Below are positions 1-58,564 of a DNA stretch of 64,000 nucleotides, in pieces (position 1 is the stretch's first letter; the number at the start of each line of letters is the position of its first letter). A program made the translations under genes and the position numbers. The stretch is taken from NCBI GenBank assembly GCA_040876345.1, contig JBBDPM010000006.1, positions 6,803 to 70,802 on the forward strand, given 5' to 3'. Origin of the DNA: Candidatus Woykebacteria bacterium. Its GTDB lineage: Bacteria; Patescibacteriota; Microgenomatia; Woykebacterales; RBG-16-39-9b. The notes beneath the pieces are model-generated. The model had not been told where the DNA came from and made no database searches. It saw only the letters and a program-made list of their open reading frames with translations.

Positions 1-11
1 ACGCACTAGGC

Positions 12-1442
12 TCAGTTTTTCATAGATTCCCTCCTCATCTCCTCTGCTTCTTTCTTGGCTACCTCCGCCCATTGCTTAGCGGTTAGCAGGGTGCCGTCGG
101 CAGCGAATTCCAAGGTATCCTTTATCACCCGCGCAATGTCTTGCTTCGCTGCTGGATCGTTCGCCAGATCTTGGAGAAGCTGCCTTGATACCGGCTCGAG
201 GAAATCGAAACTTCCAGCGCTGACTACCGGTATGACCACACCCTTTGTTTCCTCGTCCTTCTCTTCTGGTGTGAGCGGACTCCCATCCTCCTTTGCCACC
301 ATTCCCATAGCAAGGAAGGTGAGGAACATCTCGTGCTTACGGTAGAATTCCTGGCCGAGCACGATGTGTTGACGGCCGACCCAAGTTTCTTCAACAATCT
401 CCAGCTTGCTGAAGAATCCGTATCTACCCGGAATGTGGGTGGAATCGAGTAGGTAGTCCACTCTCAGGAGTCTGTCCTCGGCTCTCCACTCATACCGCCC
501 GTAGATCTTGTGTTTGAAGGACCAGCGGTTTGAGCAGTATTCAACCCAGGGTGGGTTGGGAATTGAGTTTCGATCACGCCGAGCTCTGAGGAAGAGGTTT
601 CGCTCCTCACAGTGCAGGTAAGTTTCGCCTTGCGCCAGCGCCTCAACCGAGTTGAGAGTCCTTTCCACCTCGTCCGACCAGCTGTCGTCCAGAAAGGCTG
701 TTGCAGTCTGGCATTGGTAGAAAGCGAACTCGCTTGCGAAGCGATAGAAGGTCAAGGCTCCAAATCCACCATCTGTTGCCAGACTAACCTTCCTAAGGTA
801 AGCAGGCAGCTTCTCGACCTCTTCGCGGGACAAGCCCTGGACGTAGTGAGCGACAAGTCGGAAGGCTTCCGCCAGGCACTCTTTAAACTCGGGTGATATA
901 TCACCCTTGTCGTGAGGGTACTTGCCTTCGACTGACGCTTTGGACATTGAGGCGATAAATAGGTAGTTGGCCGTGAGTTCGGTGGCACTCATCCGTACTG
1001 CGTTTCTCCCGTCATGAAAAACAATAGTTTGGGACGATTGCCGGTTGAGCTCCGCCTTCAACTCCTCCCACTCCTCGTCCGTGCAACCCCTGCAAAACTC
1101 CTCTCTGTCCTCCTCTGTGAACTCCCCAGTCAAGTCAATTCGGTAAGGCAGCAGAAGGACTTCGATGTGGGGTGAGAATGTTGGGAGCAGTATGCCGTAT
1201 GGCTTACCCGCCATAGCGATCACCTCAATGAATTGATCTCGTTCCTGCGATGAGAAGTAGGGAGCGTATTGAACGAAGTTATCGGCGAACGAGAGGAATA
1301 CCTCCTTTTCCTCCTCGCTCAGGGTGATCGATCCCTTCACCGCCTCGAAGATGTGCAGAAGCCTCCTGTACAAGAAGATCTTGCACAATCTACTCGATTT
1401 TTTCCGGTTCCGTTTCGATATCCCCTGTCTCTTGGCCGGCAT
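12..1442 (-). CDS. Hypothetical 476-aa protein on a GC-rich island; no recognisable motif
   Basis: Long uninterrupted ORF. Composition is visibly GC-richer than the neighbouring AT-rich genes. I recognised no family motif. Confidence 0.5.
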   Translation of the reverse strand: MPAKRQGISKRNRKKSSRLCKIFLYRRLLHIFEAVKGSITLSEEEKEVFLSFADNFVQYAPYFSSQERDQFIEVIAMAGKPYGILLPTFSPHIEVLLLPYRIDLTGEFTEEDREEFCRGCTDEEWEELKAELNRQSSQTIVFHDGRNAVRMSATELTANYLFIASMSKASVEGKYPHDKGDISPEFKECLAEAFRLVAHYVQGLSREEVEKLPAYLRKVSLATDGGFGALTFYRFASEFAFYQCQTATAFLDDSWSDEVERTLNSVEALAQGETYLHCEERNLFLRARRDRNSIPNPPWVEYCSNRWSFKHKIYGRYEWRAEDRLLRVDYLLDSTHIPGRYGFFSKLEIVEETWVGRQHIVLGQEFYRKHEMFLTFLAMGMVAKEDGSPLTPEEKDEETKGVVIPVVSAGSFDFLEPVSRQLLQDLANDPAAKQDIARVIKDTLEFAADGTLLTAKQWAEVAKKEAEEMRRESMKN

Positions 1443-1595
1443 CGTGATTTCTCCTTTCCCCAGTTGATGAACGAATGTATTGTTAAGGAACCGATGATCT
1501 GTAAAGTGGATTATAAAGCTATGTCAACCTTTTTTCCAGTGCGCTTCAAACCTCACATCTACAAATCCCGCCTTTTGGCCAATTAAGCGATTTTC

Positions 1596-1624
1596 TTGAC
1601 ATAGAAGCAGGTTAATCCTAAGAT
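1596..1624 (+). promoter_or_regulatory. Sigma70-like promoter TTGACA-17-TAAGAT upstream of the 1633 gene
   Basis: TTGACA at 1596-1601, a 17-nt spacer, TAAGAT at 1619-1624, followed by AGAGG and a GTG start. Confidence 0.5.
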
Positions 1625-1632
1625 TTAGAGGC

Positions 1633-2517
1633 GTGACAAAAACTTTTGTTGGACCAGGCATTTTAATAGTTTTTGGCATAATTTTCCTTTTGAATAATTT
1701 TGGGATCTTACCATGGGATGTGTGGCTCTCACTTTGGAAGTTCTGGCCAATAATTTTAATTTTGGTTGGCGTGGAAATACTACTGGGAAAGCCTGCCTCT
1801 ATTAAAACTTTTGTGGTACTCTTCGGATTAGTATTTCTTGTCCCAATAATCCTCTCTTATAACCCAATTACCAACAACCCTCTTGCGACTGAGGAATTTG
1901 AAATAGCCGAAAGCCTGGGGGTGGCAACTTCCGCAAAGATAATCTTGGAATTGCCTGCTTCAACCATTAATATTGGTTCCTTGGAGGGAAGCTCGGCTTT
2001 TCTCACCCAAGGTAAAATAGTCTATAGTGAGGCCGCCAAAAAACCCAGTGTAGAAAAAAAGGAAACTGGCGGAAAAATGGAGTTAACTTTAACTCAATCT
2101 ACCCAAGGTAAACTCCCTTTTATTTCAAATCTAAAAACTAATGCTAATCTCTCCCTAACCTCTCTAATACCTTTAGAAATATTCATTAAGACGGGTGCCT
2201 CCACTGCCAACATTGATCTCTCTAAGCTTAAATCTGAGTACTTGGAAGTAAATTCGGGAGCTTCTAGCTTGAATATTAAACTTGCTGATAATTTTAGCCA
2301 AAAAATATTGATTAAAGCAGGGGCTTCCTCAATTACACTAGAAATTCCTGTAAAACTTGAATCAAAAGTTACCGTCGATTCTCAAGTAAAAAGTGTTGCC
2401 GCGCCGGAAAGATTTAAAAAAACAGCTGATACCTACCAAACCAAGGATTTTGAAAAAGCAAACGTTCGGGGGGAGATAGAAATAAAATCGGCGGCTGGAA
2501 GCATAACAATCAAGTAA
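1633..2517 (+). CDS. Membrane protein with two N-terminal TM helices and C-terminal LiaF/DUF4097-like beta-repeat domain
   Basis: N-terminal hydrophobic helices (ILIVFGIIFLLNNFGILPW..., WPIILILVGVEILL). Repeated GASxxNI(x)L strands in the C-terminal half, as in LiaF-like 'putative adhesin' domains. Confidence 0.55.
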   Translation: MTKTFVGPGILIVFGIIFLLNNFGILPWDVWLSLWKFWPIILILVGVEILLGKPASIKTFVVLFGLVFLVPIILSYNPITNNPLATEEFEIAESLGVATSAKIILELPASTINIGSLEGSSAFLTQGKIVYSEAAKKPSVEKKETGGKMELTLTQSTQGKLPFISNLKTNANLSLTSLIPLEIFIKTGASTANIDLSKLKSEYLEVNSGASSLNIKLADNFSQKILIKAGASSITLEIPVKLESKVTVDSQVKSVAAPERFKKTADTYQTKDFEKANVRGEIEIKSAAGSITIK

Positions 2518-2522
2518 AGTTC

Positions 2523-2551
2523 TTGACAAGATGGCGACCTATTGATAATAT
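2523..2551 (+). promoter_or_regulatory. Consensus-like promoter TTGACA-17-TAATAT at the start of GC-rich island B
   Basis: TTGACA at 2523-2528, 17-nt spacer, TAATAT at 2546-2551. Confidence 0.5.
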
Positions 2552-2665
2552 TTGTTCCAATATGACCAAGAAAAGCAGCGTTCTTAGCCTTGTACTCACA
2601 AAGCTCCTCGTTGTGGGGGCAAAACGATTGCGGGGGTAAGAGTATTTCGCACCTTTTTTTAACAA

Positions 2666-2686
2666 CCCCCGCAAGGGGGTTTTTTA
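2666..2686 (+). terminator. Intrinsic terminator hairpin CCCCC-GCAA-GGGGG plus T6, with an upstream alternative pairing partner (TTGCGGGGG at 2621-2629)
   Basis: CCCCCGCAAGGGGGTTTTTT. The upstream TTGCGGGGG is the exact reverse complement of CCCCCGCAA, so two mutually exclusive hairpins are possible (attenuator-like). Confidence 0.5.
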
Positions 2687-2703
2687 GTGTTTATTTTGAT
2701 CAC

Positions 2704-2776
2704 AAGCCCTTCGTACAATGAAGGACAGCCAGACTACCACTGGAAGACGTGGGTTCGAACCCCGCAGGGCTTACCA
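2704..2776 (+). tRNA. tRNA-like element or pseudo-tRNA: perfect 7-bp acceptor stem, T-arm GTGGG/TTCGAAC/CCCGC, encoded CCA; D and anticodon arms non-canonical
   Basis: AAGCCCT...AGGGCTT-A-CCA pair perfectly. The T-loop is TTCGAAC. The only 7-nt anticodon-type loop (ACTACCA, anticodon UAC) has C at positions 33 and 37 and a 4-bp stem. No D-stem can be drawn. Confidence 0.35.
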
Positions 2777-2809
2777 AAAAATCACTGTGGTGGAAAGGAG
2801 ACACCGATC

Positions 2810-3073
2810 ATGACAATCACGGGTAGCTCAAACCCAAGCGCTGCGTTGCTGAGTATCCCTGGGGTACGGACAAAATGTCCCAAGTGCCCGTCCTGCAATC
2901 GACCGGTTGGCAGAGGAAACAGACACACGGACGCGGATGAACTTGACCATAACGACCAAACTCATGTTCACTGCCCGTATGACGACTGCAGGGAAGTTTC
3001 CCTGGTTCGAGGCGACGAAGACGGGATTGTCCTAACTTCACTTCACCAAAGTGGCGAGTCAATGGCGACTTAG
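2810..3073 (+). CDS. Small Cys-rich zinc-ribbon-like protein (~87 aa)
   Basis: AAGGAG 8 nt upstream of the ATG at 2810. Motifs CPKCPSC...HCPYDDC. GC-rich island. Confidence 0.45.
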   Translation: MTITGSSNPSAALLSIPGVRTKCPKCPSCNRPVGRGNRHTDADELDHNDQTHVHCPYDDCREVSLVRGDEDGIVLTSLHQSGESMAT

Positions 3074-3309
3074 CAAATAAGCAGGTCGTTAGAGAGAGGT
3101 GCAATCATTACTACTGACTTCGGTAGGGCCAAACAAGCACTAGCACGGTCGAGGCAGAAGCTTGATCAAGCTTTGGCGGGTTTAATGGTGGCGGATGAGG
3201 AGTCTGTATTTGTTATCGATCTAGTAACTATCATGAGCCAGGTCGAACAACTAGTGCAGACCATCCATTCGGTACAGAACGGGGTCGAGAGATAAAACAG
3301 GAGGCACAC

Positions 3310-3570
3310 ATGGTAGCTCACCCAAGCAACGAAGCAGAAGAGGTGGGAGACGAGGGGCAGGTGGTCGATGCGAAGGAGCGGCGGAAGTTCCGCGAACGGC
3401 TTATCGCTGCAGGAGGGGCCAATAACCAAACACTCGTGCTGGTGGCTCAAGAAGAACTGCTGAAACACCCTGAGTGGAAGCCAGTGGTGGAAAGCGTACT
3501 GAGAGAGTTGGGATTGCAGTACTTGGCGGAGCAAATACACTGCGGTGCCCCTGCCTTCGCTCATAGCTGA
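3310..3570 (+). CDS. Hypothetical 86-aa protein (island B)
   Basis: Strong RBS ACAGGAGG 6 nt before the ATG. Acidic N-terminus. The overlapping minus-strand ORFs have no RBS. Confidence 0.45.
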   Translation: MVAHPSNEAEEVGDEGQVVDAKERRKFRERLIAAGGANNQTLVLVAQEELLKHPEWKPVVESVLRELGLQYLAEQIHCGAPAFAHS

Positions 3571-3674
3571 ACTCACTTGGCGGAGAGAGACAACCAATGA
3601 AAGCGGACCAGCCGGCATAATATCCGCTTCTCACATCGTTGCCCCGGTATCCGGCTCTGCTGGGGCATATCTTC

Positions 3675-3703
3675 TTGAATTGAACTTAACTTCCTGATAT
3701 AAT
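3675..3703 (+). promoter_or_regulatory. clpP promoter TTGAAT-17-TATAAT giving a (near-)leaderless transcript
   Basis: TTGAAT at 3675-3680, TATAAT at 3698-3703. The clpP ATG at 3715 lies only about 5 nt past the expected transcription start, and there is no SD. Confidence 0.55.
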
Positions 3704-3714
3704 CCACTCCACTT

Positions 3715-8200: not shown

Positions 8201-8301
8201 TTAATTGTGCAGAAGTGAGTTTTTTAGCCTGAATTGGCCATAGTATGGGGAGCTCATGTAGGGCAGGCGTGAGCTTCCCGTATTCGGGCCAATTTTTTTT
8301 T
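8201..8301 (+). ncRNA. Candidate ~100-nt small RNA: consensus promoter followed by a long imperfect hairpin (ATTGGCC...GGCCAAT) and T9
   Basis: Promoter at 8166-8194. Hairpin at 8233-8293 (ATTGGCC/GGCCAAT outer stem, GGGAGCTCA/TGAGCTTCCC inner). T-run at 8293-8301. No ORF with an RBS in between. Confidence 0.4.
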
Positions 8302-8317
8302 ACCCACTCCACACTAC

Positions 8318-8346
8318 TTGACAAATCAAACGTAAATTCTTAGTAT
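8318..8346 (+). promoter_or_regulatory. Promoter TTGACA-17-TAGTAT driving the T-box leader
   Basis: TTGACA at 8318-8323, TAGTAT at 8341-8346. Confidence 0.5.
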
Positions 8347-8352
8347 AGAGGA

Positions 8353-8646
8353 TAACTTAATATTAAAAGCACTGATTCAGAGAGGGCTGATTCGAAAACC
8401 ATACAGAGAGCCAGTTAAGGTGAGAGTCTGGCAGGCGATTAGATCAGTCTATTCACTGAGGAGCTGAAGGCTGAAAAATAATTTTAGTAGGTCATTCCGG
8501 GAACGCCCGTTATAGCGTGATGAACCTTATCACCCTTCAAACAACCGGGTTGAGAGGTTCTAGATTGGTCTTTCTCGGCAACGGGAAGACAAGTAAGGTG
8601 GTACAGCGGCCAAGACTCGCCCTTACAGGGGGGGTCTTTTTTTGTG
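8353..8646 (+). promoter_or_regulatory. T-box riboswitch leader (AAGGTGGTACAGCGG at 8595-8609) with terminator (8614-8645) upstream of aroF-pheS-pheT
   Basis: Near-consensus T-box sequence (consensus AGGGTGGTACCGCG) containing UGGU to pair the tRNA 3' NCCA end. Followed by a GACTCGCCC-TTACA-GGGGGGGTC hairpin plus T8 immediately before the aroF start. Confidence 0.6.
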
Positions 8647-9675
8647 GGAGAACTTATGATTGTAATAATGGAAAAAGATTATTTAAAAAAGGATCTTAAC
8701 TTGGTTATAGATCGAATACATAGAGAAGGGTTAAGAGCCGAGCCAATAATAGGAGTGGAGCGTACAGTTGTTGCCGTAGTCGGGGACATCACAGAAATAC
8801 CAGAAATGAAGTCCAACTTAGAGGAAACGCCTGGAGTGGCCGAAGTTCAAAGAATTAGCACACCATATAAACTCTCTTCTCGGCAAGTGCAGAAAGAAGA
8901 CACTATTGTCGATGTCTCCGGAGTAAAGTTTGGCGCTAAAAATATAGTGGTGATTGCTGGCCCGTGCGCGGTAGAATCTGAAAAGCAAACAGTAGAAACT
9001 GCTATTGCCGTAAAAAAATCTGGGGCGAAGGTTTTACGAGGCGGCGCCTTTAAACCAAGAGCCTCCCCATACAGCTTCCAAGGTTTGGAAAAAGAAGGTT
9101 TGAAAATACTCTCCAAAGCTAGGAAGGAAACTGGACTCCCCGTTGCAACAGAAGTAATTAGCCCAGAGGATGTAGAGCTCGTCTCGGAATATTCTGACAT
9201 CCTCCAAATCGGGGCGAGAAACGCCCAAAACTTTCCCCTTTTAAAGAAGTGTGGAAAAGCAAAAAGACCAATAATACTAAAAAGAGGCCTGGGCGAGACG
9301 ATTGAAGAGTGGTTACTCTCGGCTGAATATATCTTGGAAGGTGGTAATAAAAACGTAATTCTTTGTGAGAGAGGGATAAGAACATTTGAGGTGGCCACTA
9401 GGTTCACCTTAGATATCGATGCAATACCCCTTACTAAAAACCTCTCCCACTTGCCGGTAATTGGGGACCCAAGTCACGGAACAGGGAAAAGAATATTAGT
9501 TAAACCAGTCGCCAAAGCCTGCATTGCCGCTGGTGCTGATGGGCTTATCATTGAGGTTCACCCAAACCCAGAGCAAGCAAAATCTGACTCTCCGCAGCAG
9601 TTGAATTTCAGCGAGTTCGAGATTCTTATGAGGGAGGTCAGGAAAATTGCAAGGGCGGATGGGAGAAAATTATGA
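8644..9675 (+). CDS. aroF: 3-deoxy-7-phosphoheptulonate (DAHP) synthase, type I-beta, with N-terminal ferredoxin-like regulatory domain (Thermotoga-type)
   Basis: IAGPCAVES...VLRGGAFKPRTSPYSFQGL...IGARNAQNF...LKRG...CERGIRTF...GDPSH matches Thermotoga-type DAHP synthase. The true start is probably the ATG at 8656. Confidence 0.85.
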   Translation: MGELMIVIMEKDYLKKDLNLVIDRIHREGLRAEPIIGVERTVVAVVGDITEIPEMKSNLEETPGVAEVQRISTPYKLSSRQVQKEDTIVDVSGVKFGAKNIVVIAGPCAVESEKQTVETAIAVKKSGAKVLRGGAFKPRASPYSFQGLEKEGLKILSKARKETGLPVATEVISPEDVELVSEYSDILQIGARNAQNFPLLKKCGKAKRPIILKRGLGETIEEWLLSAEYILEGGNKNVILCERGIRTFEVATRFTLDIDAIPLTKNLSHLPVIGDPSHGTGKRILVKPVAKACIAAGADGLIIEVHPNPEQAKSDSPQQLNFSEFEILMREVRKIARADGRKL

Positions 9676-9717
9676 AGACTCCGTTAGCAAAAAAGAGCCT
9701 ATGTTATCCTAACTAAA

Positions 9718-10728: not shown

Positions 10729-10736
10729 TTTAAATT

Positions 10737-12755: not shown

Positions 12756-12761
12756 TCTCAA

Positions 12762-12797
12762 CGCCGTCTGAAAGTGCTTAAGCAACCTCAGACGGCG
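12762..12797. terminator. 10-bp perfect hairpin (CGCCGTCTGA/TCAGACGGCG) at the pheT end and island boundary; no T-tract
   Basis: Inverted repeat at 12762-12771 and 12788-12797 with a 16-nt loop. Confidence 0.4.
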
Positions 12798-12834
12798 CGT
12801 TGTGTTGGACCGCATTCGGACAAGGCAGTTGACC

Positions 12835-13053
12835 TCATTCCGGCGCTTTCACAACAAAGGCGATCTTCACTTCTCTCCGCCCAAAGACCTCTTCTACCCG
12901 CCAACCAACAAGGTGAGCCGCCTCACCGTAGTAGTACTCCGTAAGGGCAGCATCACGTTCCTCGGTCGTGTAGAGCCCATCTCGATACAGGTCAAGAAGA
13001 GCCGCTACGTGCTCCTCAACTATCCGTTCAGGATCGTCGGTGGTAGTAACCAT
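12835..13053 (-). CDS. Hypothetical acidic 72-aa protein (GC-rich island)
   Basis: ATG at 13051-13053 (minus strand) preceded by GAGGAAG. The product begins MVTTTDDPERIVEEH. Confidence 0.45.
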   Translation of the reverse strand: MVTTTDDPERIVEEHVAALLDLYRDGLYTTEERDAALTEYYYGEAAHLVGWRVEEVFGRREVKIAFVVKAPE

Positions 13054-13421
13054 AACAACTTCCTCATCAGAACAGCAGCCGCAGCTCCCTAACAACATGC
13101 AGCACTTATACCTCAGGAGATTCGAAGATCCCCTCCTGGCAAAATGCCACAGACCTCTCTCTGATGAGCACCGAAAGGGCAGCCAGGAGCTGCCGGCAGC
13201 CTAGGCGATCGGGCCAAACAATGTACGAGACATCCCAGTTGGGTGGGGGCCAGGGGGTGGCACAAGGCCGCCCAACACCCTAAACTGGTGAACTCGCAAG
13301 GCTCAGGTGAGCCGTCCAGCCCTGCCTTGGGAAAGGGTAGCTCTGGGGAGTTCTTCGGTGGGACCCCATCCAGCAAACCCTTTCGGTGCTCATTTAGACC
13401 GCTCAGACCAACCGCCTCATG

Positions 13422-13973
13422 CTATCCTATCGCGCGAATCTTGACTTGGGCTGGTCGGGCTGTTACAACCGGGCCCGGTTGATAACCTCCCCACACGCAA
13501 CGAATCTCTTCCCTATGCGCACGGAAGAAGGTGGGGAACCAAGTGAGGTATTCGAGAACCTCCTCACGAATCCGCCTGTTGATGCTGTACGGGCGGCTTT
13601 CGTTTTGCACTACTTCCCGCCACGTTTGAACTCCGTCAGCACCCACCGCAAGATCCCCCTCGAGCACTGCCCCGAAACGTTGCAGATACCGCTCCACCTC
13701 GAGGCGAAGGCGCTCAAAGTTCTGTAACAGCCTGACTACCTGGTCGTCGTATCCTGGGAAGGGGTTAGGACCCCTAATCACCAAGTCCTTAGCCTTGCCC
13801 CTGGCAAGGTAAGCGAGCCAGAAGATCGTATCCACTGAACCGCGGACCAAACCTTCGGCAAGGACGAGATCGTGTCTTTCGAAACCGATGTTGAGTAGGA
13901 ATTCCCCCGCGAAGTCTTCCGCAGGTCTATCCTCACCAGTTCCCACCCCCTGTGAAGAATCTGGTAGGGTCAT
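13422..13973 (-). CDS. Hypothetical ~183-aa protein (GC-rich island)
   Basis: ORF with an internal ATG preceded by AAGGAGG. No known motif recognised. Confidence 0.4.
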   Translation of the reverse strand: MTLPDSSQGVGTGEDRPAEDFAGEFLLNIGFERHDLVLAEGLVRGSVDTIFWLAYLARGKAKDLVIRGPNPFPGYDDQVVRLLQNFERLRLEVERYLQRFGAVLEGDLAVGADGVQTWREVVQNESRPYSINRRIREEVLEYLTWFPTFFRAHREEIRCVWGGYQPGPVVTARPAQVKIRAIG

Positions 13974-14115
13974 TTGGCGTTTGGGCCTCCTTTCCACTCG
14001 CAAGTCGGTCTGAGCGGCGGGACTGGGTACGAAGCAGCACACTTTCTCGTACTCAATCCCGCACGTTTATTAAAGTACAAGCAGAATATACTATATTTTA
14101 ACCTGAAAAGGCAAA

Positions 14116-16728: not shown

Positions 16729-16822
16729 CGTATAAATATAAGTTCTAATATTTTACCATTCTTTAGTTGTCTTGCGCAAAATCTTGATATATAATTACGC
16801 CCTGGAGACAAGTTTTGTTACT

Positions 16823-18019: not shown

Positions 18020-18044
18020 ATTTTATACGTAAAAACCGCTGGAT

Positions 18045-20138: not shown

Positions 20139-20170
20139 CAGTTGGCCCCCTGGAAAATATAATTGCCTAT

Positions 20171-20380
20171 ATGACACCATTACCAAAGAAAAAAATCTCT
20201 AAAGCTCGGAAGGGCAAAAGAAGAGAAAACATTAAATTAATCTTCCCAAAACTATCAGTTTGCCCAAACTGCTCTGCTCTTAAACTACCCCATAAAGCTT
20301 GTCCGAATTGCGGAACCTACAAAGGAAAGGTAGCAAAGGTAGTAAAAGTAAAAACAAAGGTTACTAAAGGGGGAGCGTAG
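20171..20380 (+). CDS. rpmF: 50S ribosomal protein L32
   Basis: MTPLPKKKISKARKGKRR...CPNCSALKLPHKACPNCGTYKG zinc-ribbon L32. Confidence 0.85.
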   Translation: MTPLPKKKISKARKGKRRENIKLIFPKLSVCPNCSALKLPHKACPNCGTYKGKVAKVVKVKTKVTKGGA

Positions 20381-20860: not shown

Positions 20861-20863
20861 CTA

Positions 20864-21097
20864 ATGAACACTTTAGAAGAAATAAAAGAACTAATTTCAG
20901 GTCAATTTGGAGTTGAGAAAGACTCTATCTTACCTGATTCCCACCTTCAGGACGACTTAAATGCAGACCCTCTGAGTATTGCGGATCTTGTTGTTAGCCT
21001 GGAAGACAAATTCAAGTTAAAAATACCTCAAGAAGAAATAATTAAATTTAACAAGGTTTCAGACATTGTAGAATTTATAGAAGACCAAATGGATTAG
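20864..21097 (+). CDS. acpP: Acyl carrier protein-like (DPLS in place of canonical DSL)
   Basis: 77 aa, acidic. LNADPLSIADLVVSLEDKF resembles the ACP helix II region. Position next to rnc as in Firmicutes. Confidence 0.65.
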   Translation: MNTLEEIKELISGQFGVEKDSILPDSHLQDDLNADPLSIADLVVSLEDKFKLKIPQEEIIKFNKVSDIVEFIEDQMD

Positions 21098-21110
21098 AGT
21101 AAAAACAAGT

Positions 21111-21803: not shown

Positions 21804-21815
21804 AATCCCCTATCT

Positions 21816-22043: not shown

Positions 22044-22073
22044 AATCAAAATAAACTTGAGTTAGTAGGTAAA

Positions 22074-22313: not shown

Positions 22314-22320
22314 GTCTCTA

Positions 22321-28655: not shown

Positions 28656-28670
28656 GTCATCTAATAACTA

Positions 28671-39213: not shown

Positions 39214-39339
39214 AAACCCCAAGGTGCCCTAACTAGCCCACCTCTAAGGTGTGATTATGCGCCCGAAGAGAAAACTTAATTAAACGTCCAAATTTCCCAA
39301 AAATATTACCTCATAGTAACGAATCGGCTGGGTCTGTGT

Positions 39340-39382
39340 TATAATACGTTCGCCAACGGCTCTGGACGTTCCTAGGAACGTT
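39340..39382 (+). promoter_or_regulatory. -10 TATAAT followed by three ACGTTC half-sites, including a 16-bp perfect palindrome ACGTTCCTAGGAACGT (39366-39381)
   Basis: Palindrome read directly. It sits about 100 nt upstream of the island ORF at 39480, overlapping the putative transcription-start region. Confidence 0.5.
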
Positions 39383-39479
39383 ACGGATACTAGTTAGGTA
39401 ACGGAAAGGAGAGCCGAAAACTGAATAGTAGGACAGGAACCTAGCCCGTCGCGCACGATGGAGTAGAAGGAGAAGAAAA

Positions 39480-40007
39480 GTGCGACAACTAGCCGAACTT
39501 CCCACAATCAGCATGAATACCTTTCGGATTGTCGGCCTTGAATGGGCTGGTAGTGACGAAAGGGCATCCGAGTTCACAAAAAGCGTCCTTAAGCGCCTTG
39601 CGGGTGGCGAAAACCCCCAAATCGCGATCTTTCTGGAACGGGTTTTCGAGCGTTTTAGGAACCGGGATGGGTTTCCAATGAACGCAACCTTGCTCTACGC
39701 ATGCAGCGTCTACCGGATGCTTGAAGTCGAAGCCCAAGGACAACTGCCGGTTGTGTCAACCGACACCGGAGCACCAATCCAGGTAGAGTATCTGCGTGAT
39801 CCAGAAGGATTCTACGCTAAACTCGTCATGGAAGTTGAGAAGAAGAATCCAGTTGTTCTGGAATCAGTTCTTCTTATAAACGTGTGGTACGCCCTTGCGG
39901 GAGATCTTGCCTCCGCAGCGGAAATACCACGTCCCGGACTGGCGCTTTACAAGATGCTCGAGAGCCAAATAGAATCAAATAGGCTCTCGGAATCTCTCGG
40001 CTATTAA
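39480..40007 (+). CDS. Hypothetical 175-aa protein on the GC-rich island between gyrB and gyrA
   Basis: GTG start with GAAGGAG 8 nt upstream. Followed by a terminator-like hairpin ACGA-GGGG-TCGT plus T-run near 40185. Confidence 0.5.
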   Translation: MRQLAELPTISMNTFRIVGLEWAGSDERASEFTKSVLKRLAGGENPQIAIFLERVFERFRNRDGFPMNATLLYACSVYRMLEVEAQGQLPVVSTDTGAPIQVEYLRDPEGFYAKLVMEVEKKNPVVLESVLLINVWYALAGDLASAAEIPRPGLALYKMLESQIESNRLSESLGY

Positions 40008-40266
40008 CGTCTACCTGTACCTTTCCTGTACCTCTACCAAAGGAGAGGGTTAAGATACAACTAGTTAGTATTAGTTGTGTTATCAGGCAGATTGATACCC
40101 GTTATAAAAAACGGGGCTGCCTAACCTAAGCAAATCAATTCGTTGGTTTTCTTAGGGGGAAAAATGACCCCAATTAGCATAAAGCTACGAGGGGTCGTTT
40201 TTCTTTTCTATCCGCTAAAAAGCTTTCAAATATTTAACTAACCTAACTTTCAAGCAACCACCAATC

Positions 40267-40295
40267 TTGCCACGCTCTATAAAACCATATATAAT
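40267..40295 (+). promoter_or_regulatory. gyrA promoter TTGCCA-17-TATAAT, leaderless transcript
   Basis: -10 ends 8 nt before the gyrA ATG at 40304. Confidence 0.55.
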
Positions 40296-40303
40296 ACTTC
40301 TTC

Positions 40304-44055: not shown

Positions 44056-44150
44056 GTTACCAGGCTACCACAAGAAACCCCAAAAAGCAATTTACTTATT
44101 AAGACTTATAGTGTATAATACTTTCATTCTAGTAAGAGAGGAGGTGAAAC

Positions 44151-44480
44151 ATGGAAACACCGAGAAGTTTCCTCTACCTGGCACTGCTGCACCACGGCAA
44201 GTTACTGGTTGAGCGTTTGGATGTTAGGGAACGTACTCCCGCAGCCGTAGCCCTAATCGCTCACTGGTACCAGATAGGGGAGATAAGCAGACAGGACGAG
44301 GAGTCCCTATTCAATTGCTGGAGGGAGCTTTCCTTGCACGTCTTTGCTTGTAGTAAAGATAAAGAGCAGAGACGTGAGGAAAATCTCGTGACTAGCCGGC
44401 AAGACTTTGCGGAAGTTCTAATATCTGGATACGCGGAGTTCCGCAAATGTCTTGATCAACGCCTGGCCAAAGCTGCCTAG
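44151..44480 (+). CDS. Hypothetical 109-aa protein (GC-rich island)
   Basis: Very strong RBS GAGGAGGTG 7 nt before the ATG. Followed by a 9-bp hairpin GCGGTGTTG/CAACACCGC. Confidence 0.5.
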   Translation: METPRSFLYLALLHHGKLLVERLDVRERTPAAVALIAHWYQIGEISRQDEESLFNCWRELSLHVFACSKDKEQRREENLVTSRQDFAEVLISGYAEFRKCLDQRLAKAA

Positions 44481-44652
44481 GGGGATCAAAAAAGTTCGGC
44501 GCACAGGTCGGGCGGTGTTGGCTGGTATTTGGGAGCAACACCGCTCAAACTCTCCATTAACACCTGATTTTTAACTATTTTAGCTAGGTATAAGATGCCT
44601 AACGCAAGATGCGATAATACCTGAGAATCCGAGAAGCTCGAAGGTTTCGAAG

Positions 44653-46217: not shown

Positions 46218-46590
46218 TGCTTAACCTCATTTAACCAATCAATTTCGCCCTATAGTGTTGAAAAGCCTGTCACGGTATGTTAAAATCTTTATCGGATGCC
46301 CGGCTACAATTGTGCTGAGGGACTGACCAGTCGCAGCTCCAGCTTAGGCCTATTAAAAAATATTTTTAGGCCGAACCGATGGCAGAGGGCAACTTCTGTG
46401 CAAAGGGAAGGACTGGCGCCGGGCAAACCTTCACCGACTCCGTCTTCGTCGAGTCTGGCTCGATTAGGACGTGCGTTGGAAGGGTGGGTATGAGAAAGTT
46501 CACGAACCGAGAATTCAGCACCGACAACGCTGGATACGCTTGGCCAATCGTGATTCCGGATCACGACTCCTCTACCACCCCGCCTCATTT

Positions 46591-47775: not shown

Positions 47776-48120
47776 CATAAGTATATTCTCCGAAATATAT
47801 ACGAATAAGTCAATTCGGACAAAGTGGATCAAAATAGTAAAAACTTAACATGGTTAGCTCAGACAACAAGTCTGAGCGCAGCACGCGAGAGTACTCTAGC
47901 CCATGAAATGGTCGCAGAGCGACTAGTGAGGTAATTTAGTTACGGAACGTGATATAATCGCCGCAGCCGGAAGTAGGAGAGTAGACCTGGCAACCGGGAT
48001 GACCCAGGAAAGTGGTTGAGGTCTCTAAGTCAATCACGGCTGACTCGGGAATAGGGGACCCGCGCCTTAACCGCAAGCGCAAAAAACCAACGAAAGCCAC
48101 GCACATTCACACTGGAGGTA

Positions 48121-49440
48121 ATGATGCAACTAACGAAGCCGAGAAACCTAGAACGGGTGGTTGTCACCGGAATGGGCGGAGAAACACCGCAAGGTGACTT
48201 AGAGCAAACCTGGGCGTCGGTGCTTGGCGGAAAGAGTGTAATCAAGCCCGTTGTCTACTCCATCCAGACACCAACCGAAGTGGGAAACCGGGGCAGAATC
48301 AAAAAACGAACCACCGTCAGGGAAGAAGTCTATCTAACCGCACCCCTGCCAGATGGGTGGGACAACGAACTTGACCCCAAAGACAAGAGAAGGACCGATG
48401 TCAACGGTCAGCTTCTTGTCTTGGGCATCGGCCGAGCCCTGAATTCAGCTTGCCTAACCGAGCGCGATCGAACTGATGTCGGTCTCATCACGGGCACCAA
48501 TCTGGTCTTCACCGAGTACAACGTCGACCAGATCGAGTGCTACATTCACTTTGGTGTAGCTGACCCATTGGCAGCAGCCAAAGTGATGATCAACAACGCC
48601 GCTGGCTACGGCGCAATTCGCTACGGTCTTGGCGGCCCCAACTTCGCCCTCTCCTCCGCTTGCGCAAGCGGTAGCATGGCGGTGGGGGAAGCGTTCAGAA
48701 AAGTCCAGTACGGGGACGCGCCAATCATGTTGGCGGCTGGAGTTGAAGGTGCCACTCACCCACAGAACCTCTACGCTTTCGAACAGGCAAAGGCCTACTC
48801 CACATCCCTCGATAAGGGAGCGGCAGCGAGTCGTCCCGGAAGCTGTTCTCGGGATGGGTTCGTAATGGGAAACGGCTGCGTCGTGCTCGTCCTCGAGTCT
48901 CTCAACTCGGCACTCGACAGGGGAGCGCCAATTTTGGCGGAAATCATTGGCTACGGCAACACAGACGATAAGGACAGCCTCTACGACCCTCCTGAAGATG
49001 GCGAAGGTCTCAAAAGAGCGATCATCAGATCTTTGCAAGACGCAGAGATCTACGATCAGCTCGCGGAGATAGCCGACCAATGCTACTACAACGGCCACAC
49101 CACAGGAACGCCTAATGGAGATAGCGCCGAACTGATGGCTATTAGGGACGCCTTCGGCCCAAAGGCCGTGAGGATGCTCAAGATGAGCTTCACCAAGAGC
49201 AGTACAGGCCATCTTCTCGGTTGTGCTGGTGCCCTTGAAGCTGCTCTGTGTGTTATGGTCATCCAGGACCAATTGATCCCACCAACCATCAACCTGGACG
49301 ATCCTGACACAAAGCTTGGTGGTCTCCAGGTTGTCAAAGACAACCCACTGGCAGCGACCATCAACTACACGATTAGTCCGTCTGCCGGCTTTGGCGGTCA
49401 CAACGGGTGCGTCGTTATCAGAAAGTGGAAAGGGGAGTAG
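48121..49440 (+). CDS. Stand-alone beta-ketoacyl-ACP synthase (FabF/KAS-II-like), GC-rich
   Basis: RVVVTGMG, active-site Cys SSACASG, His motifs NGHTTGTPNGD and GHLLGCAG. GGAGG 7 nt upstream. No other fab genes adjacent. Confidence 0.8.
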   Translation: MMQLTKPRNLERVVVTGMGGETPQGDLEQTWASVLGGKSVIKPVVYSIQTPTEVGNRGRIKKRTTVREEVYLTAPLPDGWDNELDPKDKRRTDVNGQLLVLGIGRALNSACLTERDRTDVGLITGTNLVFTEYNVDQIECYIHFGVADPLAAAKVMINNAAGYGAIRYGLGGPNFALSSACASGSMAVGEAFRKVQYGDAPIMLAAGVEGATHPQNLYAFEQAKAYSTSLDKGAAASRPGSCSRDGFVMGNGCVVLVLESLNSALDRGAPILAEIIGYGNTDDKDSLYDPPEDGEGLKRAIIRSLQDAEIYDQLAEIADQCYYNGHTTGTPNGDSAELMAIRDAFGPKAVRMLKMSFTKSSTGHLLGCAGALEAALCVMVIQDQLIPPTINLDDPDTKLGGLQVVKDNPLAATINYTISPSAGFGGHNGCVVIRKWKGE

Positions 49441-49520
49441 TAGGGATTGAAAGGATAGGGAGCAACGCTCTGCTGGTGTGCGCCTAACGGCCTGGCAGTA
49501 CCCAGTAGAGCGTCTCCACT

Positions 49521-52318: not shown

Positions 52319-52589
52319 AACACAAAAACTCTATTTGAAATTTAAACTTCTTTAAACTAAACTTTCCTTATGAAAACTGGTTTAGCCACACTTGCGTTAC
52401 ACGGAGGCTCAGCCAAAAGTTAGTAAAATACCGTAAAGTATACGTTTGCTCACATAGGTAAAGACGGTACACCTTGTGGTACAGCGCCTCCAAACTTCAC
52501 TTCTTTGACCCATAGTCTTGTATTTTAGTTCTATTTACATTAAAATAAGATCAGAGGACAAATCAGCGAGGATAGAGTTCAAGGAGGAT

Positions 52590-52913
52590 ATGAGGAATAT
52601 AATGAAACAGCTCCGACCAGTCCCCCTGGCAATTCTGGCGGCCTTGTCATTGTACCCACGCCCAGTCTCAGAGATTGCAACGGAAGTAGGGGAAATGATT
52701 GGCGAACCAGTCAGCGCACCAACTCTCTACGGAGTGACTGGATCCCTTCTCAGGCTTGGGTAACTTGAGGTTGACACGAACCGTACCATCAATCGGCGCT
52801 CCCTCTACCTGAAAATCACCAAAATCAGGCACCGAGCGCTCGAAGAGGGTACACGGAGACTGGAGCGCCTCACAAGCTACCTACGTCAACCTTCACTTAG
52901 GCCAGTAACCTAG
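52590..52913 (+). pseudogene. PadR-family transcriptional regulator interrupted by an in-frame TAA (52761-52763)
   Basis: The N-terminal winged-helix part (PLAILAALSLYPRPVSEIATEV...APTLYGVTGSLLRLG) and the C-terminal part (LEVD...NRRSLYLKITKIRHRALEE) are in the same frame, separated by a single TAA. AAGGAGG upstream. Confidence 0.55.
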
Positions 52914-53028
52914 TGCTTGGCATCTTGAAAGGAGGTAAGAAGAGAGATGCCACATCTATTCAATTAAGAATTAATAATTCAGAATTAAAAATCCCTTAAA
53001 CATCTAAAGTGTACCTCTTTTTTTATTT

Positions 53029-54093
53029 TTATGTTAAATCAGAAGGCAAGGCTGTTTTTTCTATTCTAATTCCAAGTGTTTTGGCCAGATCAGCTCTCTT
53101 CCAAGGTGCATCTACCTCAATATCTGGTAGCCCGGAAACTTTTCTAATTGGCGGCTGATGAGGATCTTTCCTAAGTGTTTCCGGGATTAAGTCTTCTTCC
53201 CAAACGTAGCGCCGCTCCACTCTCTCGCCAGTATCAAAATCAACCATCTCCTGCGTCTTCGGAATTGTAACTTCGTAATCAACTTTGTCTTGCTGTTCAG
53301 CGCGATAAAAGATCAGTCTGACTTCGTCACCAGTAGTAACAATTTGTAATTTCTTACCACCGAAATTAAGTTCCTCAACTTCCCCAAAGGACTGGGTATG
53401 ACCATCATGCTCTAATTTTTCTGCGCCGTTTTTTAAGGTCAAAATTAAATCAGACCTATGAAATCGGAACTCTGGTTTATAATCACTTCTAAAAATTTCT
53501 GTGGCACGATTAACTGTAACCTCACTTAGTTCCTCTTGTTCGTATGTAACCTCCAAACCCTCATCTCTAACAATCTGAAAAAAACGCATATCATCCCGAT
53601 ATCTTCTTAACCAAACGGCTTCAGAAGTCGGCATCTTAAAACCTTGATGACTCTTACTTCCTTTTAATAGATCAGGAGAAATCTGATCTCTACCAAGGCT
53701 AAACTCCGAATATGGTTTGTCAAGTGATGTATTTACCCAAAAACTTGATTGTATCTCGAAGTCGATAATCTTTTGATCATCTTCCAACAATCTTTGATTA
53801 AACCTGTAAAAATATCTTGCTCCTGAAATTGAATCTCCGTGATCAAATCTATCCGCCGCAAAAAGGTGATCTGGGTCAATTTGTCGTGGATTACCGTCAA
53901 GTAGTACCACACGTCTGTCAGCGAACTTTTGAAACTCTTTTTTTACATATTCTGGAATTGAAATATCAACTGAGCCTAATGGGGTAGAGGATTCATCACT
54001 ATTTGGGCCGTTATTGATTTCCTTGGGGATTCCGGTTATGTCTTCCGGACCAACCGGATTCTCATATTCATCAACGGCTAACATCAAATTCAC
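53029..54093 (-). CDS. Hypothetical 354-aa acidic protein co-transcribed with a receiver domain
   Basis: Start overlaps the stop of the upstream receiver gene (ATGA). No motif recognised. Confidence 0.6.
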   Translation of the reverse strand: MNLMLAVDEYENPVGPEDITGIPKEINNGPNSDESSTPLGSVDISIPEYVKKEFQKFADRRVVLLDGNPRQIDPDHLFAADRFDHGDSISGARYFYRFNQRLLEDDQKIIDFEIQSSFWVNTSLDKPYSEFSLGRDQISPDLLKGSKSHQGFKMPTSEAVWLRRYRDDMRFFQIVRDEGLEVTYEQEELSEVTVNRATEIFRSDYKPEFRFHRSDLILTLKNGAEKLEHDGHTQSFGEVEELNFGGKKLQIVTTGDEVRLIFYRAEQQDKVDYEVTIPKTQEMVDFDTGERVERRYVWEEDLIPETLRKDPHQPPIRKVSGLPDIEVDAPWKRADLAKTLGIRIEKTALPSDLT

Positions 54094-56732: not shown

Positions 56733-57089
56733 AAATACCCTAATATAATCGAATTATCTAATTCGAATTTATTCGAATAAAATTCGGTTGCATTGTCATG
56801 GAAGCAACCGAAAACAGTCCTCAAGATAAAATCCGAACCCGTTGCCTACATTAAAAGAGACCTCGATCTCATTAAAGATTGATCTTACAACCTCTTTAAT
56901 CTAACCCCATAGTTATTGACTCATCCGTATAAATGTGCCAATATTTACCTCTTACGTAAGCCAAACGAGCTTGTGCTAGATGAAGAGAGGAGAAGCAACG
57001 TGGAAATCACGTACGAAAGCACGATCTAACTCAAGGATCTCACAGCGATTGCTAGGGAGATCCTGCCTCAAGTCCTGGAAAAACTGGTA

Positions 57090-57416
57090 GTGGGAGACGG
57101 GCTTACTAACCCTGTCCAAACAACCCTGATCCTCCCGGAAGGCCTCGAACTGGACATTACGTCTGCAAAGGGTTTTACCCCTTTGACCGAGGATGATCTC
57201 GACAGAATGGCCAAGGGTTGGGCCGAAAAGTTCCTCGAACAACTGACGATCCGCGGCATCGAGATCTACTCGGACTTCGATCACAAGGGTGTCATACTCG
57301 AACAGGAACTGGCACCTGAAGATCGGGCTTTCATACTCGTCATGCAAGTGCAACTATCCAGAAGCTGCGACAAGCAATCGGCACGGCCTAGAATTAGAAA
57401 GAGGAGGTTCCCTTGA
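57090..57416 (+). CDS. Hypothetical 108-aa protein (GC-rich island), GTG start
   Basis: ORF with a 9-codon upstream ORF carrying AGAGGAG; overlaps the next gene by 4 nt. Confidence 0.4.
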   Translation: MGDGLTNPVQTTLILPEGLELDITSAKGFTPLTEDDLDRMAKGWAEKFLEQLTIRGIEIYSDFDHKGVILEQELAPEDRAFILVMQVQLSRSCDKQSARPRIRKRRFP

Positions 57417-57682
57417 AGATATCGGGAGAAATAACTTTCGACCAGATCGTATTGGCTGGTTCGAACTTCCTTTCGGCCTTGGAAAAGCCAGAGGAACACA
57501 AGCAAATGACTGTCGAGGGGTACACCGAAATGTTCCTTGACGGTCTGAAAGATCGAGGAATCTCCACGTGGGACGAGCTTCTCGCTGAGGACAATCGCGA
57601 GATCTTCACCGAAAGTGACCAAAAGGAGGCAGACCCACTGATGCGTCAGTTCTTAGCGGTGATCCTCCACGAAGTCACTTAA
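57413..57682 (+). CDS. Hypothetical acidic 89-aa protein (GC-rich island), TTG start
   Basis: GAGGAGG 6 nt before the TTG. Overlapped (TTGA) with the upstream ORF stop, consistent with an operon. Confidence 0.4.
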   Translation: MKISGEITFDQIVLAGSNFLSALEKPEEHKQMTVEGYTEMFLDGLKDRGISTWDELLAEDNREIFTESDQKEADPLMRQFLAVILHEVT

Positions 57683-57834
57683 CAGTCCCAACAGGGACCG
57701 TAAGCACCTGACTGCAGGGTCACAATCTTCGGAACGTGGCCCTTGCTCCTGAGGAAATCTTTGAAAAAAAGGTTTCTTGAAGAGCAAGATTACTTGTCTT
57801 GTGCAAAGACTTTTCTTGACTGAGGAAGGCAATT

Positions 57835-58197
57835 ATGACAGCTCTCTCACCAAATGCTCTAGGGATCCAACTTGGATTCTCAGGAAACCTGAGACGATTA
57901 GTTGTCGTACTTGTACCCATTATGCTCTTTCCAAAAGACAACGGAAAGCAGATAGAGGTGGTGGAAGTCTTTGACAAGGCCTCCGTGAGACTCATGCGGT
58001 ATAAAAACCTAGCCAGCGTTGGCTTCGGTGTACGCTACCGCCTAGGTCCGTCGGTGCTCGTGTGCTTCCTTCCATGGGTCCTAAAAAGAGGAAAGTGGAG
58101 GGCTAGATCACACCTGACCACCACTTCATCTATAAATTTCCAAACATTCTTCAATATCAGTTATTTAAAACAGCTTTATCTTTTGTATGGAGTATGA
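57835..58197 (+). CDS. Hypothetical 120-aa protein
   Basis: GAGGAAGG upstream of the ATG. An alternative minus-strand ORF at 57720-57995 cannot be excluded. Confidence 0.3.
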   Translation: MTALSPNALGIQLGFSGNLRRLVVVLVPIMLFPKDNGKQIEVVEVFDKASVRLMRYKNLASVGFGVRYRLGPSVLVCFLPWVLKRGKWRARSHLTTTSSINFQTFFNISYLKQLYLLYGV

Positions 58198-58564
58198 ACT
58201 TGAATAAGGAGAGGGCTCGGTGGTGGAGGTGAGATCCTCAACAACACCAAGCCTTCCGAGCAGGGCGGTGATGGTGCAATAACCGGCAGGGGTTTACTAG
58301 CACACCACCCGAACTCTCTCTTGAGTTCTTGGAGGGGGATAATCCAGTTCCTAAGCCTGGATCACTTGCAACACGGTCAAGAGGGTGCAGCTTGATATTG
58401 GGCTGAAATATCCGCGCATCATCCTCTAAACCCAAACCATCCCGTGAGGTAGACGGTTAGTTTGCAAGGAGCAGCAAGTTTTACCGACTTAAGCTCAATC
58501 CCCGTCCCTGTGGGCCGATTATAACATATTATTTCGTAGGTACAAATCCAGTATAATAGAGCTG

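Follow-up and report, generated by a model that had tools for sequence, protein, structure and literature searches.

Integron cassettes are usually promoterless, and long GC-rich intergenic regions of AT-rich genomes reportedly mark structured non-coding RNAs, which is the GC-IGR approach of the Breaker laboratory. The closest described systems, however, are the replacement and additive flexible genomic islands (fGIs) of streamlined aquatic prokaryotes (PMC4033161), for which the concept of the replacement island is available (Lopez-Perez, Martin-Cuadrado and Rodriguez-Valera 2014). In the Patescibacteria, also named candidate phyla radiation (CPR), most detected gene transfers are between Patescibacteria, and up to 13% of the genome has been attributed to horizontal transfer (PMC12455944). 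Here we analyze a stretch of 64,000 nucleotides, in the following called the window, from a metagenome-assembled genome of Candidatus Woykebacteria, a member of these bacteria. Within 58 kb of the window at least nine GC-rich islands of 0.4-1.8 kb are found in the spacers between AT-rich genes, and together they make up about 16% of the sequence. We find that the islands are short variable slots which hold fast-changing or replaceable genes amid a conserved AT-rich core.

We suggest that these slots are flexible genomic islets fed from a gene pool which is GC-richer, uses Shine-Dalgarno (SD) sites and is restricted to the Patescibacteria. This reading is tentative and we give it a probability of roughly 0.45. 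We arrive at it because of the empty sites found in relatives, the unrelated fillers of single slots, the non-sister genes for beta-ketoacyl-ACP synthase (KAS; ACP, acyl carrier protein) and the contrast between islands and backbone in composition and initiation signals.

The backbone of the window consists of ordinary housekeeping genes, among them those for ClpP, ThrRS, PheS/T, PBP1, TyrRS, RecG, GyrB/A, SHMT, a Xer recombinase and DinB as well as a pilin array. In the following, W denotes the window genome and L-numbers denote contigs or loci of other genomes. The PheT protein of the window is also encoded on contig JBBEDR010000006.1 (586 kb) of assembly GCA_040881185.1 and in the Logan assemblies of two sequencing runs. 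A GyrB scan of the GTDB species genomes gave no match above 65% identity. Relatives were found by a DinB scan of the JGI metagenomes and by look-ups of PheT and KAS homologs. The syntenic relatives are L085, L086, L089/L115, L091, L097, L100, L102, L109, L114, L116, L117, L120 and L121. Their core proteins are 60-85% identical to those of W, and no relative with core genes closer than about 85% amino-acid identity turned up in the scans. The islands and their parts are as follows, the promoters and terminators being predicted.

Island 1, 1..1632, minus strand: SD-led open reading frame (ORF) of 476 aa at 12-1442 (minus) and a 190-bp divergent promoter region before the LiaF gene.
Island 2, 2518..3714, plus strand: between the LiaF and ClpP genes, GC 0.51-0.52; promoter 2523-2551, terminator 2664-2681, ORFs 2810-3073 (87 aa, Cys-rich) and 3310-3570 (86 aa), both with SD, hairpin 3640-3667.
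Degenerate tRNA-like element, 2704-2773, plus strand: at the left edge of island 2; 32.5 bits with the Rfam tRNA model.
Island 3, 12756..14115, minus strand: single transcription unit, GC 0.57.
Island 3, 5' part: promoter 14114-14085, leader hairpin 14062-14017, then SD and ORF 13973-13422 (183 aa).
Island 3, 3' part: structured non-coding region 13421-13099, ORF 13098-12835 (87 or 72 aa), bidirectional terminator hairpin around 12805-12765.
Island 4, 39214..40303, plus strand: spacer between gyrB and gyrA, GC 0.50; leader of about 130 nt, ORF 39480-40007 (175 aa), 48-nt hairpin element 40116-40162, terminator-like hairpin, gyrA promoter 40267-40295.
Island 5, 44056..44652, plus strand: between the SHMT and Xer genes, GC 0.48-0.51; promoter 44091-44119, ORF 44151-44480 (109 aa).
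Island 6, 46218..46590, plus strand: promoter 46258-46286, then about 300 nt without an SD-led ORF, GC 0.51-0.54.
Island 7, 47833..49520, plus strand: FabF-like beta-ketoacyl-ACP synthase 48121-49440 (439 aa) and a 288-nt upstream region.
Island 8, 52319..53028, plus strand: SD-led ORF 52590-52763, in frame to 52913 past the stop, GC 0.49.
Accessory ORF, 53029-54093, minus strand: 354 aa, AT-rich, no Pfam domain.
Island 9, 56733..58564, plus strand: overlapping ORFs 57090-57416 (108 aa) and 57413-57682 (89 aa), and about 0.9 kb without a confident ORF.

A sequence-only reading of the window had picked out nine segments as visibly more GC-rich than the surrounding genes and had placed each of them in an intergenic gap. 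Both statements hold. The sliding-window profile has nine GC peaks at the coordinates given there, and all nine lie in spacers between backbone genes. The GC content of spans 1-9 is 0.53, 0.51, 0.57, 0.50, 0.48, 0.54, 0.55, 0.49 and 0.49, that is 48-57%, against 41.3% for the backbone outside the nine spans and 42.9% for the whole window. Islands 5, 8 and 9 are only mildly GC-rich. The first island, which had been set at 1-1450, is real but extends about 84 bp beyond the start of the window. The backbone genes (n = 55) have a mean GC of 0.413 with a standard deviation of 0.025 and a maximum of 0.455, whereas the island ORFs (n = 10) range from 0.50 to 0.57, which corresponds to z-scores of 3.4-6.4 relative to the backbone genes. 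The difference is also seen outside of ORFs, with a GC of 0.47 in the islands and 0.36 in the backbone intergenic regions.

Codon usage and sequence signature deviate as well, which had been proposed as a check. At 4-fold degenerate sites the GC is 0.55 in islands versus 0.38 in the backbone, and the fraction NNC/(NNC+NNT) of the two-fold pyrimidine-ending codons is 0.73 versus 0.41. The island proteins contain more Arg, Ala, Cys and Trp and less Lys and Ile. The GC-normalised dinucleotide signature difference delta* between the pooled islands and the backbone is 105, compared to 27 +/- 9 (maximum 55) for backbone samples of equal size. In GC, delta* and 4-fold GC the islands thus have the deviating composition which is characteristic of genomic islands. 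The same style is found in the relatives. The pooled islands of six relatives differ from the W islands by a delta* of 48 and the backbones differ from each other by 34, whereas the island sets differ from either backbone by 85-105. The island genes of L114 have strong SD sites, a GC at third codon positions (GC3) of 0.50-0.55 versus 0.27-0.37 and an NNC fraction of 0.66 versus 0.29.

It might be argued that the islands are simply highly expressed native genes. The native and presumably highly expressed genes for L32, ACP and IF3 do have a raised NNC fraction (0.54-0.70), but their 4-fold GC is low (0.18-0.31), whereas the 4-fold sites of the island genes are GC-rich (0.47-0.63). The island style is therefore not simply the style of native high expression, and this explanation is ruled out. 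Not every accessory gene is GC-rich: the GC is only 34-39% in HicAB modules and two genes for membrane proteins which lie directly upstream of the window. The 354-aa ORF beside island 8, which is missing in relatives where MscS abuts g54090, is likewise an accessory gene of native composition, unlike the GC-rich islands.

The second contrast concerns translation initiation. The median energy of the duplex with the anti-SD sequence is -10.0 kcal/mol for island ORFs (n = 14) and -1.7 kcal/mol for backbone genes (n = 59). All seven island starts for which the sequence-only reading had claimed an unusually strong SD indeed have a GGAGG-like site, although the one at 13053 is a minus-strand start inside ORF 12835-13098. 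The SD of the island-5 ORF is GAGGAGGTGA, and the SD ahead of position 57413 in island 9 is AGAGGAGGT. The backbone had been described as mostly devoid of SD sites and partly leaderless, in agreement with the energies just given. In many backbone genes, including gyrA, xer, yfbR and clpP, a TATAAT is found few bases 5' of the ATG, and judging from this placement many backbone mRNAs look leaderless. Strong SD sites do exist in some backbone genes (pilins, nusB and g33582). We therefore infer that the ribosome of W can use SD sites.

Such sharp compositional changes are all that speaks for an artefact, that is a chimera produced in assembly or binning, as had been considered from the outset, or contaminant DNA fused to the contig. 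With 100% identity, the Logan assemblies from the runs SRR27977658 and SRR27977662 match the window at 737-22755 and 8250-22755, respectively, and these stretches include both junctions of islands 2 and 3. In addition, the contig that contains the islands is 586 kb long and shows conserved synteny to either side of them, and relatives from unrelated samples and projects have GC-rich segments at the same loci. Since independent single-run assemblies match across the junctions and the relatives are GC-rich at the same loci, we reject the chimera; its probability is practically negligible.

The comparison with the relatives shows that the slots are variable. Between gyrB and gyrA the spacer is 1090 bp in W but 52 bp in L089, 34 bp in L085, 34 bp in L086 and 5 bp in L097. 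The distance from the CTP_transf-like gene to LiaF is 1.7 kb in W with island 1 and 5 bp in L117 and L120. The YfbR and DinB genes abut in L089, so that the site of island 6 is empty there, and MscS and g54090 abut in relatives at the site of island 8. Island 9 is absent in L089 and L091, where the homolog of orf56559 is directly followed by g58565 or g59203. Islands 1, 4, 6, 8 and 9 thus have an empty site in at least one relative, the absence that is expected of a genomic island; islands 2, 3, 5 and 7 are occupied in several relatives. The locations are fixed: the spacer between PheT and PBP1 is occupied in 6/6 genomes, and the spacers between YfbR and DinB and between DinB and SNase are occupied in many relatives. 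The contents of a slot, on the other hand, are unalignable or only 25-36% identical, and a similar function is seen for the KAS slot only. In the YfbR-DinB spacer of the other relatives there are at least four unrelated fillers, some of them GC-rich and some AT-rich.

Same-locus homologs throughout the lineage had been named beforehand as a finding that would speak against acquired cassettes, and in part they exist, as distant homologs or a conserved leader occur in relatives at the loci of islands 2, 3, 4, 5 and 7. The identity of the homologs of islands 2, 4, 5 and 7 is 30-58%. L114 carries between gyrB and gyrA a GC-rich, SD-led gene of 177 aa which is 58% identical to the 175-aa ORF of W over its whole length. 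The island-5 ORF has homologs with 30-34% identity in L114 and L089. The LiaF-ClpP spacer of L117 is 1.2 kb long and GC-rich and contains a Cys-rich small ORF with 39% identity to its island-2 counterpart; L116 is GC-rich in this slot, too.

The 48-nt element at 40116-40162 in island 4, a CCTAAG...CTTAGG hairpin followed by the terminator-like hairpin 5' of the gyrA promoter, is 92% identical between W and L114. As the 4-fold sites of the two genomes are saturated, this element is under constraint.

Island 7 (GC 0.55, GC3 0.62) is the only island with a recognizable enzyme. Both ketoacyl-synthase domains are found (PF00109 at 2e-37 and PF02801 at 3.5e-22), and the Cys-His-His motifs ACASG, GHTTGT and STGHLLG can be read by eye from the translation. 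With the N- and C-terminal domains and the triad the gene qualifies as a predicted FabF/KAS II. It reaches 313 bits with the NCBIfam fabF model, below the equivalog cutoff of 494, and is thus a divergent member. The nearest homologs are 58% identical and both come from Patescibacteria, while the remainder have about 40% identity. L114 has the ortholog, with 58% identity, at the same locus; L089 and L097 have no KAS there. The KAS genes in the DinB-adjacent slot of L085 and L091 are only 31-36% identical to the KAS of W, whereas generic bacterial FabF proteins reach 37-47%. In a neighbor-joining tree these genes do not group with the KAS of W, and three non-sister KAS lineages adjoin DinB. At the conserved 4-fold sites, the L114 copy has a GC of 0.38, which is near its own backbone, and the W copy has 0.54-0.57. 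This difference fits different residence times.

The large ORF of island 1 (GC 0.53, GC3 0.64) allows a similar comparison. It shows coding periodicity, and the AlphaFold2 (AF2) model of its 476-aa protein has a pLDDT of 79.6 and gave no fold match. A word-indexed search retrieved only the protein itself, but with full phmmer 27 homologs with 33-43% identity and E-values down to 2e-49 were found; the ORF is therefore not a strict ORFan. In three other CPR-like contigs (L118 8001-9305, L124 793-2085 and L125 294-1562) the homologous genes are AT-rich with a GC3 of 0.18-0.28 and lack an SD, whereas the W copy has a strong SD. Thus the family is not intrinsically GC-rich.

We now turn to the question whether the islands belong to a single type of element. 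The sequence-only reading had called the islands repeated and had suggested a family of small horizontally acquired cassettes or an unusual regulatory or selfish element. The islands are not related copies, as a repeat search and all-vs-all comparisons with blastn and tblastx, island against island and island against backbone, gave no similarity. Nor do they share terminal repeats. At the island boundaries no direct or inverted repeat of at least 9 nt was found, only a chance-level 8-mer at island 6, and there is no signature of a target-site duplication (TSD) or of terminal inverted repeats (TIR). What stands of the cassette family is the presence and absence of islands 1, 4, 6, 8 and 9 and the foreign composition and initiation signals. 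What does not stand is any common sequence, common termini or att sites, and neither a donor nor a mobility gene turned up. A single regulatory or selfish element is not supported, although island 3 does carry a conserved leader hairpin which looks regulatory.

More specifically, a single known class of mobile element might account for the islands, as its copies or its cargo; candidates are integron cassettes, miniature inverted-repeat transposable elements (MITEs) or insertion sequences, prophage remnants or tRNA-targeting islands. That the ORFs are small orphans would fit, as would the tRNA-like element at the edge of island 2 and the tyrosine recombinase gene adjoining island 5. However, this sole tyrosine recombinase (44653-45579) is encoded by a conserved Xer-like gene of the backbone, with 78-84% identity to its counterparts in relatives which carry different islands, and no IntI is found nearby. 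None of the eight attC-like cores (0/8) matched in the window by the regular expression RYYYAAC...GTTRRRY falls inside an island, a dedicated covariance model not having been used. Scans with Pfam, NCBIfam and PHROGs revealed no integrase or transposase in any island, and together with PADLOC they gave only the KAS match for the island ORFs of W and the relatives. With tblastn, the concatenate of 13 island ORFs matched none of the 50,697 phage and 72,556 plasmid records, and viral contigs scanned with the 476-aa protein and its family alignment gave no match. Taken together, an origin from one known mobile-element type is very improbable.

The tRNA-like element at the edge of island 2 has an anticodon loop with UAC (Val) and an encoded CCA but is not called by ARAGORN. 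At the same place L117 has a different tRNA-like sequence ending in ACCA, and the L116 contig begins inside a tRNA there. The element could be a real but odd tRNA or a relic of tRNA-targeted integration.

Homologs of the island genes come only from Patescibacteria-like contigs, and the best non-self matches are from Patescibacteria with at most 58% identity. A gene pool confined to the Patescibacteria is consistent with the mostly intra-Patescibacteria transfer reported for the group (PMC12455944).

The spacer between PheT and PBP1 deserves a closer look. In all six genomes (W, L115, L116, L117, L120 and L121) it contains a GC-rich island of 1.0-1.4 kb with 47-60% GC. The ORFs of these islands are not recognizably homologous; the best pairs have 27-28% identity with E = 2e-5 to 0.007 in a tiny set, and a weak residual similarity is found between the first ORFs. 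Conserved are about 110 nt after the stop codon of PBP1. They comprise a promoter TTGCxx-17/18-TAxxAT and a leader with a two-tier hairpin and the conserved loop AGTG(T)GCTGCTT (AGUGUGCUGCUU), and SD and start codon follow at a constant distance. The hairpin occurs in the six genomes in two sequence types in which both sides differ at at least ten base pairs yet still pair. No Rfam family matches the hairpin at 14017-14062. The fold z-scores within island 3 are -2.7 and -2.9.

Several observations weigh against our suggestion of islets fed from an outside pool. No donor was found among 5.8e9 proteins searched by word index or among 1.84e9 representatives, where only relatives with 33-43% identity were retrieved, nor in the phage and plasmid records, viral contigs, PHROGs and PADLOC; likewise, neither mobility genes nor signatures of att, TSD or TIR were seen at the islands. 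By signature, none of about 60 diverse genomic loci is island-like (minimum delta* 81), and in their tetranucleotide z-scores the islands show the highest correlation with the backbone of W itself (r = 0.56 versus at most 0.43 for about 60 other genomes). The GC range of all islands across the seven genomes is narrow, which argues against diverse donors. Moreover, between W and L114 the 4-fold sites are saturated with 30-42% identity, and under neutrality an ancestral or foreign composition should therefore have decayed; the W/L114 orthologs in islands 4, 5 and 7 nevertheless stay GC-rich and SD-led. Finally, the promoter, the hairpin and the start position of island 3 are kept in six genomes (6/6), which resembles the vertical inheritance of a native operon.

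The missing donor and mobility machinery, the narrow GC range, the style that persists past saturation and the conserved island-3 leader favour the main rival explanation, namely that the islands are native, vertically inherited, fast-evolving and lineage-specific genes which are kept GC-rich in place. This could be brought about by GC-biased gene conversion at hot spots of recombination or by selection favouring stable and structured mRNAs that depend on an SD, and the empty sites would be deletions. The weak similarity of the first ORFs in the PheT-PBP1 spacer and the GC-rich non-coding island DNA, which also folds better than shuffled sequence, are in line with it. On the other hand, the clean empty sites of 5-52 bp would need several precise and independent deletions. 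The KAS genes of one slot are not mutual closest relatives, the fillers of a single slot are wholly unrelated and some of them AT-rich, other accessory genes of W are AT-rich and the 476-aa family is AT-rich elsewhere. We know of no reported bacterial case of GC-biased conversion that reaches about 17 points at 4-fold sites. We consider maintenance in place a possible but rather unlikely explanation.

A further explanation is that the GC-rich segments mainly encode structured non-coding RNAs and that the ORFs are incidental. No confident ORF is found in about half of the island DNA. In island 6 a strong promoter-like site (TTGAAA-17-TAAAAT, TG upstream) precedes about 300 nt which contain no SD-led ORF, fold with z = -3.25 and have no Rfam match; this stretch may be a new structured non-coding RNA private to the W genome. 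The centre of island 3 (323 nt, 60% GC) lacks codon periodicity, is closed by a stem of 17 bp and folds with z = -2.9, and the leader hairpin of the same island covaries. As a class the islands fold better than dinucleotide shuffles with a mean z of -0.7 versus -0.13 (Mann-Whitney p = 9e-5), although the effect is modest. The hairpins noticed by the sequence-only reading are to this extent borne out, but generic promoter and terminator scans of the islands are not clearly above chance, and the loop motif of island 3 is not enriched in the other islands. However, long ORFs with periodicity, SD and real families are present: the 476-aa protein with its 27 homologs and confident AF2 model, the KAS and the island-4 ORF with 58% identity to L114. 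By our estimate an open frame of 476 codons would arise by chance at 53% GC with a probability of about 1e-9. Also, no island family is found with Rfam at the gathering thresholds or at E <= 5 except for the weak tRNA-like element at the edge of island 2; in the entire window the only matches at E <= 5 are a tRNA-Val, this element and a T-box outside the islands. Structured non-coding RNA can account for parts of islands 3 and 6 at most, and as an explanation for the islands as a whole it is quite improbable.

The ORF of island 8 is interrupted by an in-frame TAA (52761-52763), after which 49 codons follow in frame. This split ORF could be a pseudogene, a case of read-through or a sequencing error. 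A by-eye impression that it encodes a winged-helix regulator was not confirmed by Pfam.

The chromosome falls into two compartments of different composition, a syntenic AT-rich core (41% GC) whose genes are mostly SD-less or apparently leaderless, and short slots in the spacers. Each slot would be its own transcription unit with a predicted sigma-70-like promoter, and several of the ORF-bearing slots would have a long and often structured 5' leader. In most slots the SD is strong, and the ORFs are small, restricted to the lineage and one to three in number; one slot holds the gene for the FabF-like synthase and one maybe only a structured RNA. Across genomes a slot stays in its position and the composition of what it holds is constant, whereas the content is empty, different or diverged to 25-58% identity. 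In terms of mechanism, the slots might represent both the additive and the replacement kind of flexible islet. The cargo could stem from patescibacterial relatives or their unsampled mobile elements, and it might be inserted or swapped into neutral spacer DNA by recombination, sometimes anchored on conserved flanks such as the leader and the terminator of island 3. Amelioration of the cargo would be only partial.

A bolder proposal would be that CPR genomes of the Woykebacteria type sustain a second compartment of intergenic "expression slots". In these slots the promoter would be conserved and the leader structured, as with the AGUGUGCUGCUU hairpin of island 3, and the cargo would be continually exchanged or would hyper-evolve under a GC-biased process. 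We regard this proposal as doubtful and clearly unlikely. If it were true, a pool of SD-dependent orphan proteins and RNAs would exist apart from the leaderless core, and this would be an undescribed genome organization or mode of gene birth and turnover in ultra-small symbiotic bacteria.

The genomes of CPR bacteria are tiny and thought to be streamlined, yet about one-sixth of the 58 kb consists of compositionally alien units with their own promoters, which turn over amid a syntenic core. If flexible islets of this kind are general, the signature of GC, 4-fold GC, NNC preference and SD could be used to find accessory genes of uncultured CPR bacteria, among them candidate host-interaction and regulatory genes. 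Two modes of translation initiation would coexist in one genome and track the origin or class of the genes. Since the same slots can be compared across metagenomic relatives, they would also be a test bed to separate horizontal transfer from GC-biased conversion. For experiments, the conserved leader hairpin and the possible new RNAs offer concrete targets.

Some features of the window and its surroundings are noted in addition. A T-box leader at 8363-8627 (plus strand) lies 5' of the gene for DAHP synthase (8644-9675) and reaches 84.6 bits (E = 7e-17), short of the Rfam gathering score of 93; it suggests that a CPR bacterium controls its synthesis of aromatic amino acids by tRNA sensing. At 27300-31450 (minus strand) an array of pilin-like paralogs has a repeated N-terminal motif (repeat families D1-D3), and some of these genes have a strong SD. 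About 9-9.5 kb past the end of the window, a further GC peak of 600 bp (54-55%) lies between genes for a P-type ATPase and an MFS protein (L123 19480-20096). Upstream of the window (L122 13146-14405) a 1.7-kb insertion relative to L120 carries two AT-rich membrane-protein ORFs.

How do the slots compare to known systems? Like integron cassettes, clusters of attC sites lacking an integron integrase (CALINs) and isolated attC cassettes, they are small and mostly orphan single-gene units which differ by genome; unlike them, they have no attC, no IntI and no array, and each unit has its own promoter. With the regions found by the GC-IGR approach they share the long GC-rich stretches in an AT-rich genome, a covarying hairpin in island 3 and the significant fold z-scores of island 6 and the island-3 centre, but most slots hold bona fide SD-led protein genes and there is no Rfam match. 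As in classical genomic islands, GC, codon and dinucleotide usage are deviant, the distribution is patchy and many ORFans are present. In contrast to these islands, the slots are far smaller, have no integrase or transposase, no flanking repeats and no identifiable donor, and several keep their position, and to a weak degree their sequence, across relatives with saturated synonymous sites.

The closest likeness is to the replacement and additive fGIs of streamlined aquatic prokaryotes (PMC4033161), which also lie at fixed positions between core genes with unalignable content in each genome, vary in part by presence and absence and have borders without clear hallmarks of illegitimate recombination. 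Replacement is diagnosed in fGIs by peaks of synonymous SNPs in the flanking genes of closely related strains. The fGIs, however, are multi-gene clusters of tens of kb with surface glycosylation clusters as cargo and are compared among strains of one species, whereas the slots have 0.4-1.8 kb with one to three genes, carry soluble orphan proteins and were compared among relatives at the level of genus or family. The slots further differ from fGIs in being all GC-rich and SD-led, opposite to their backbone. Distinctive of the slots are the miniature scale, the GC-rich and SD-led style in a leaderless AT-rich CPR genome and the recurrence of the same slots in relatives.

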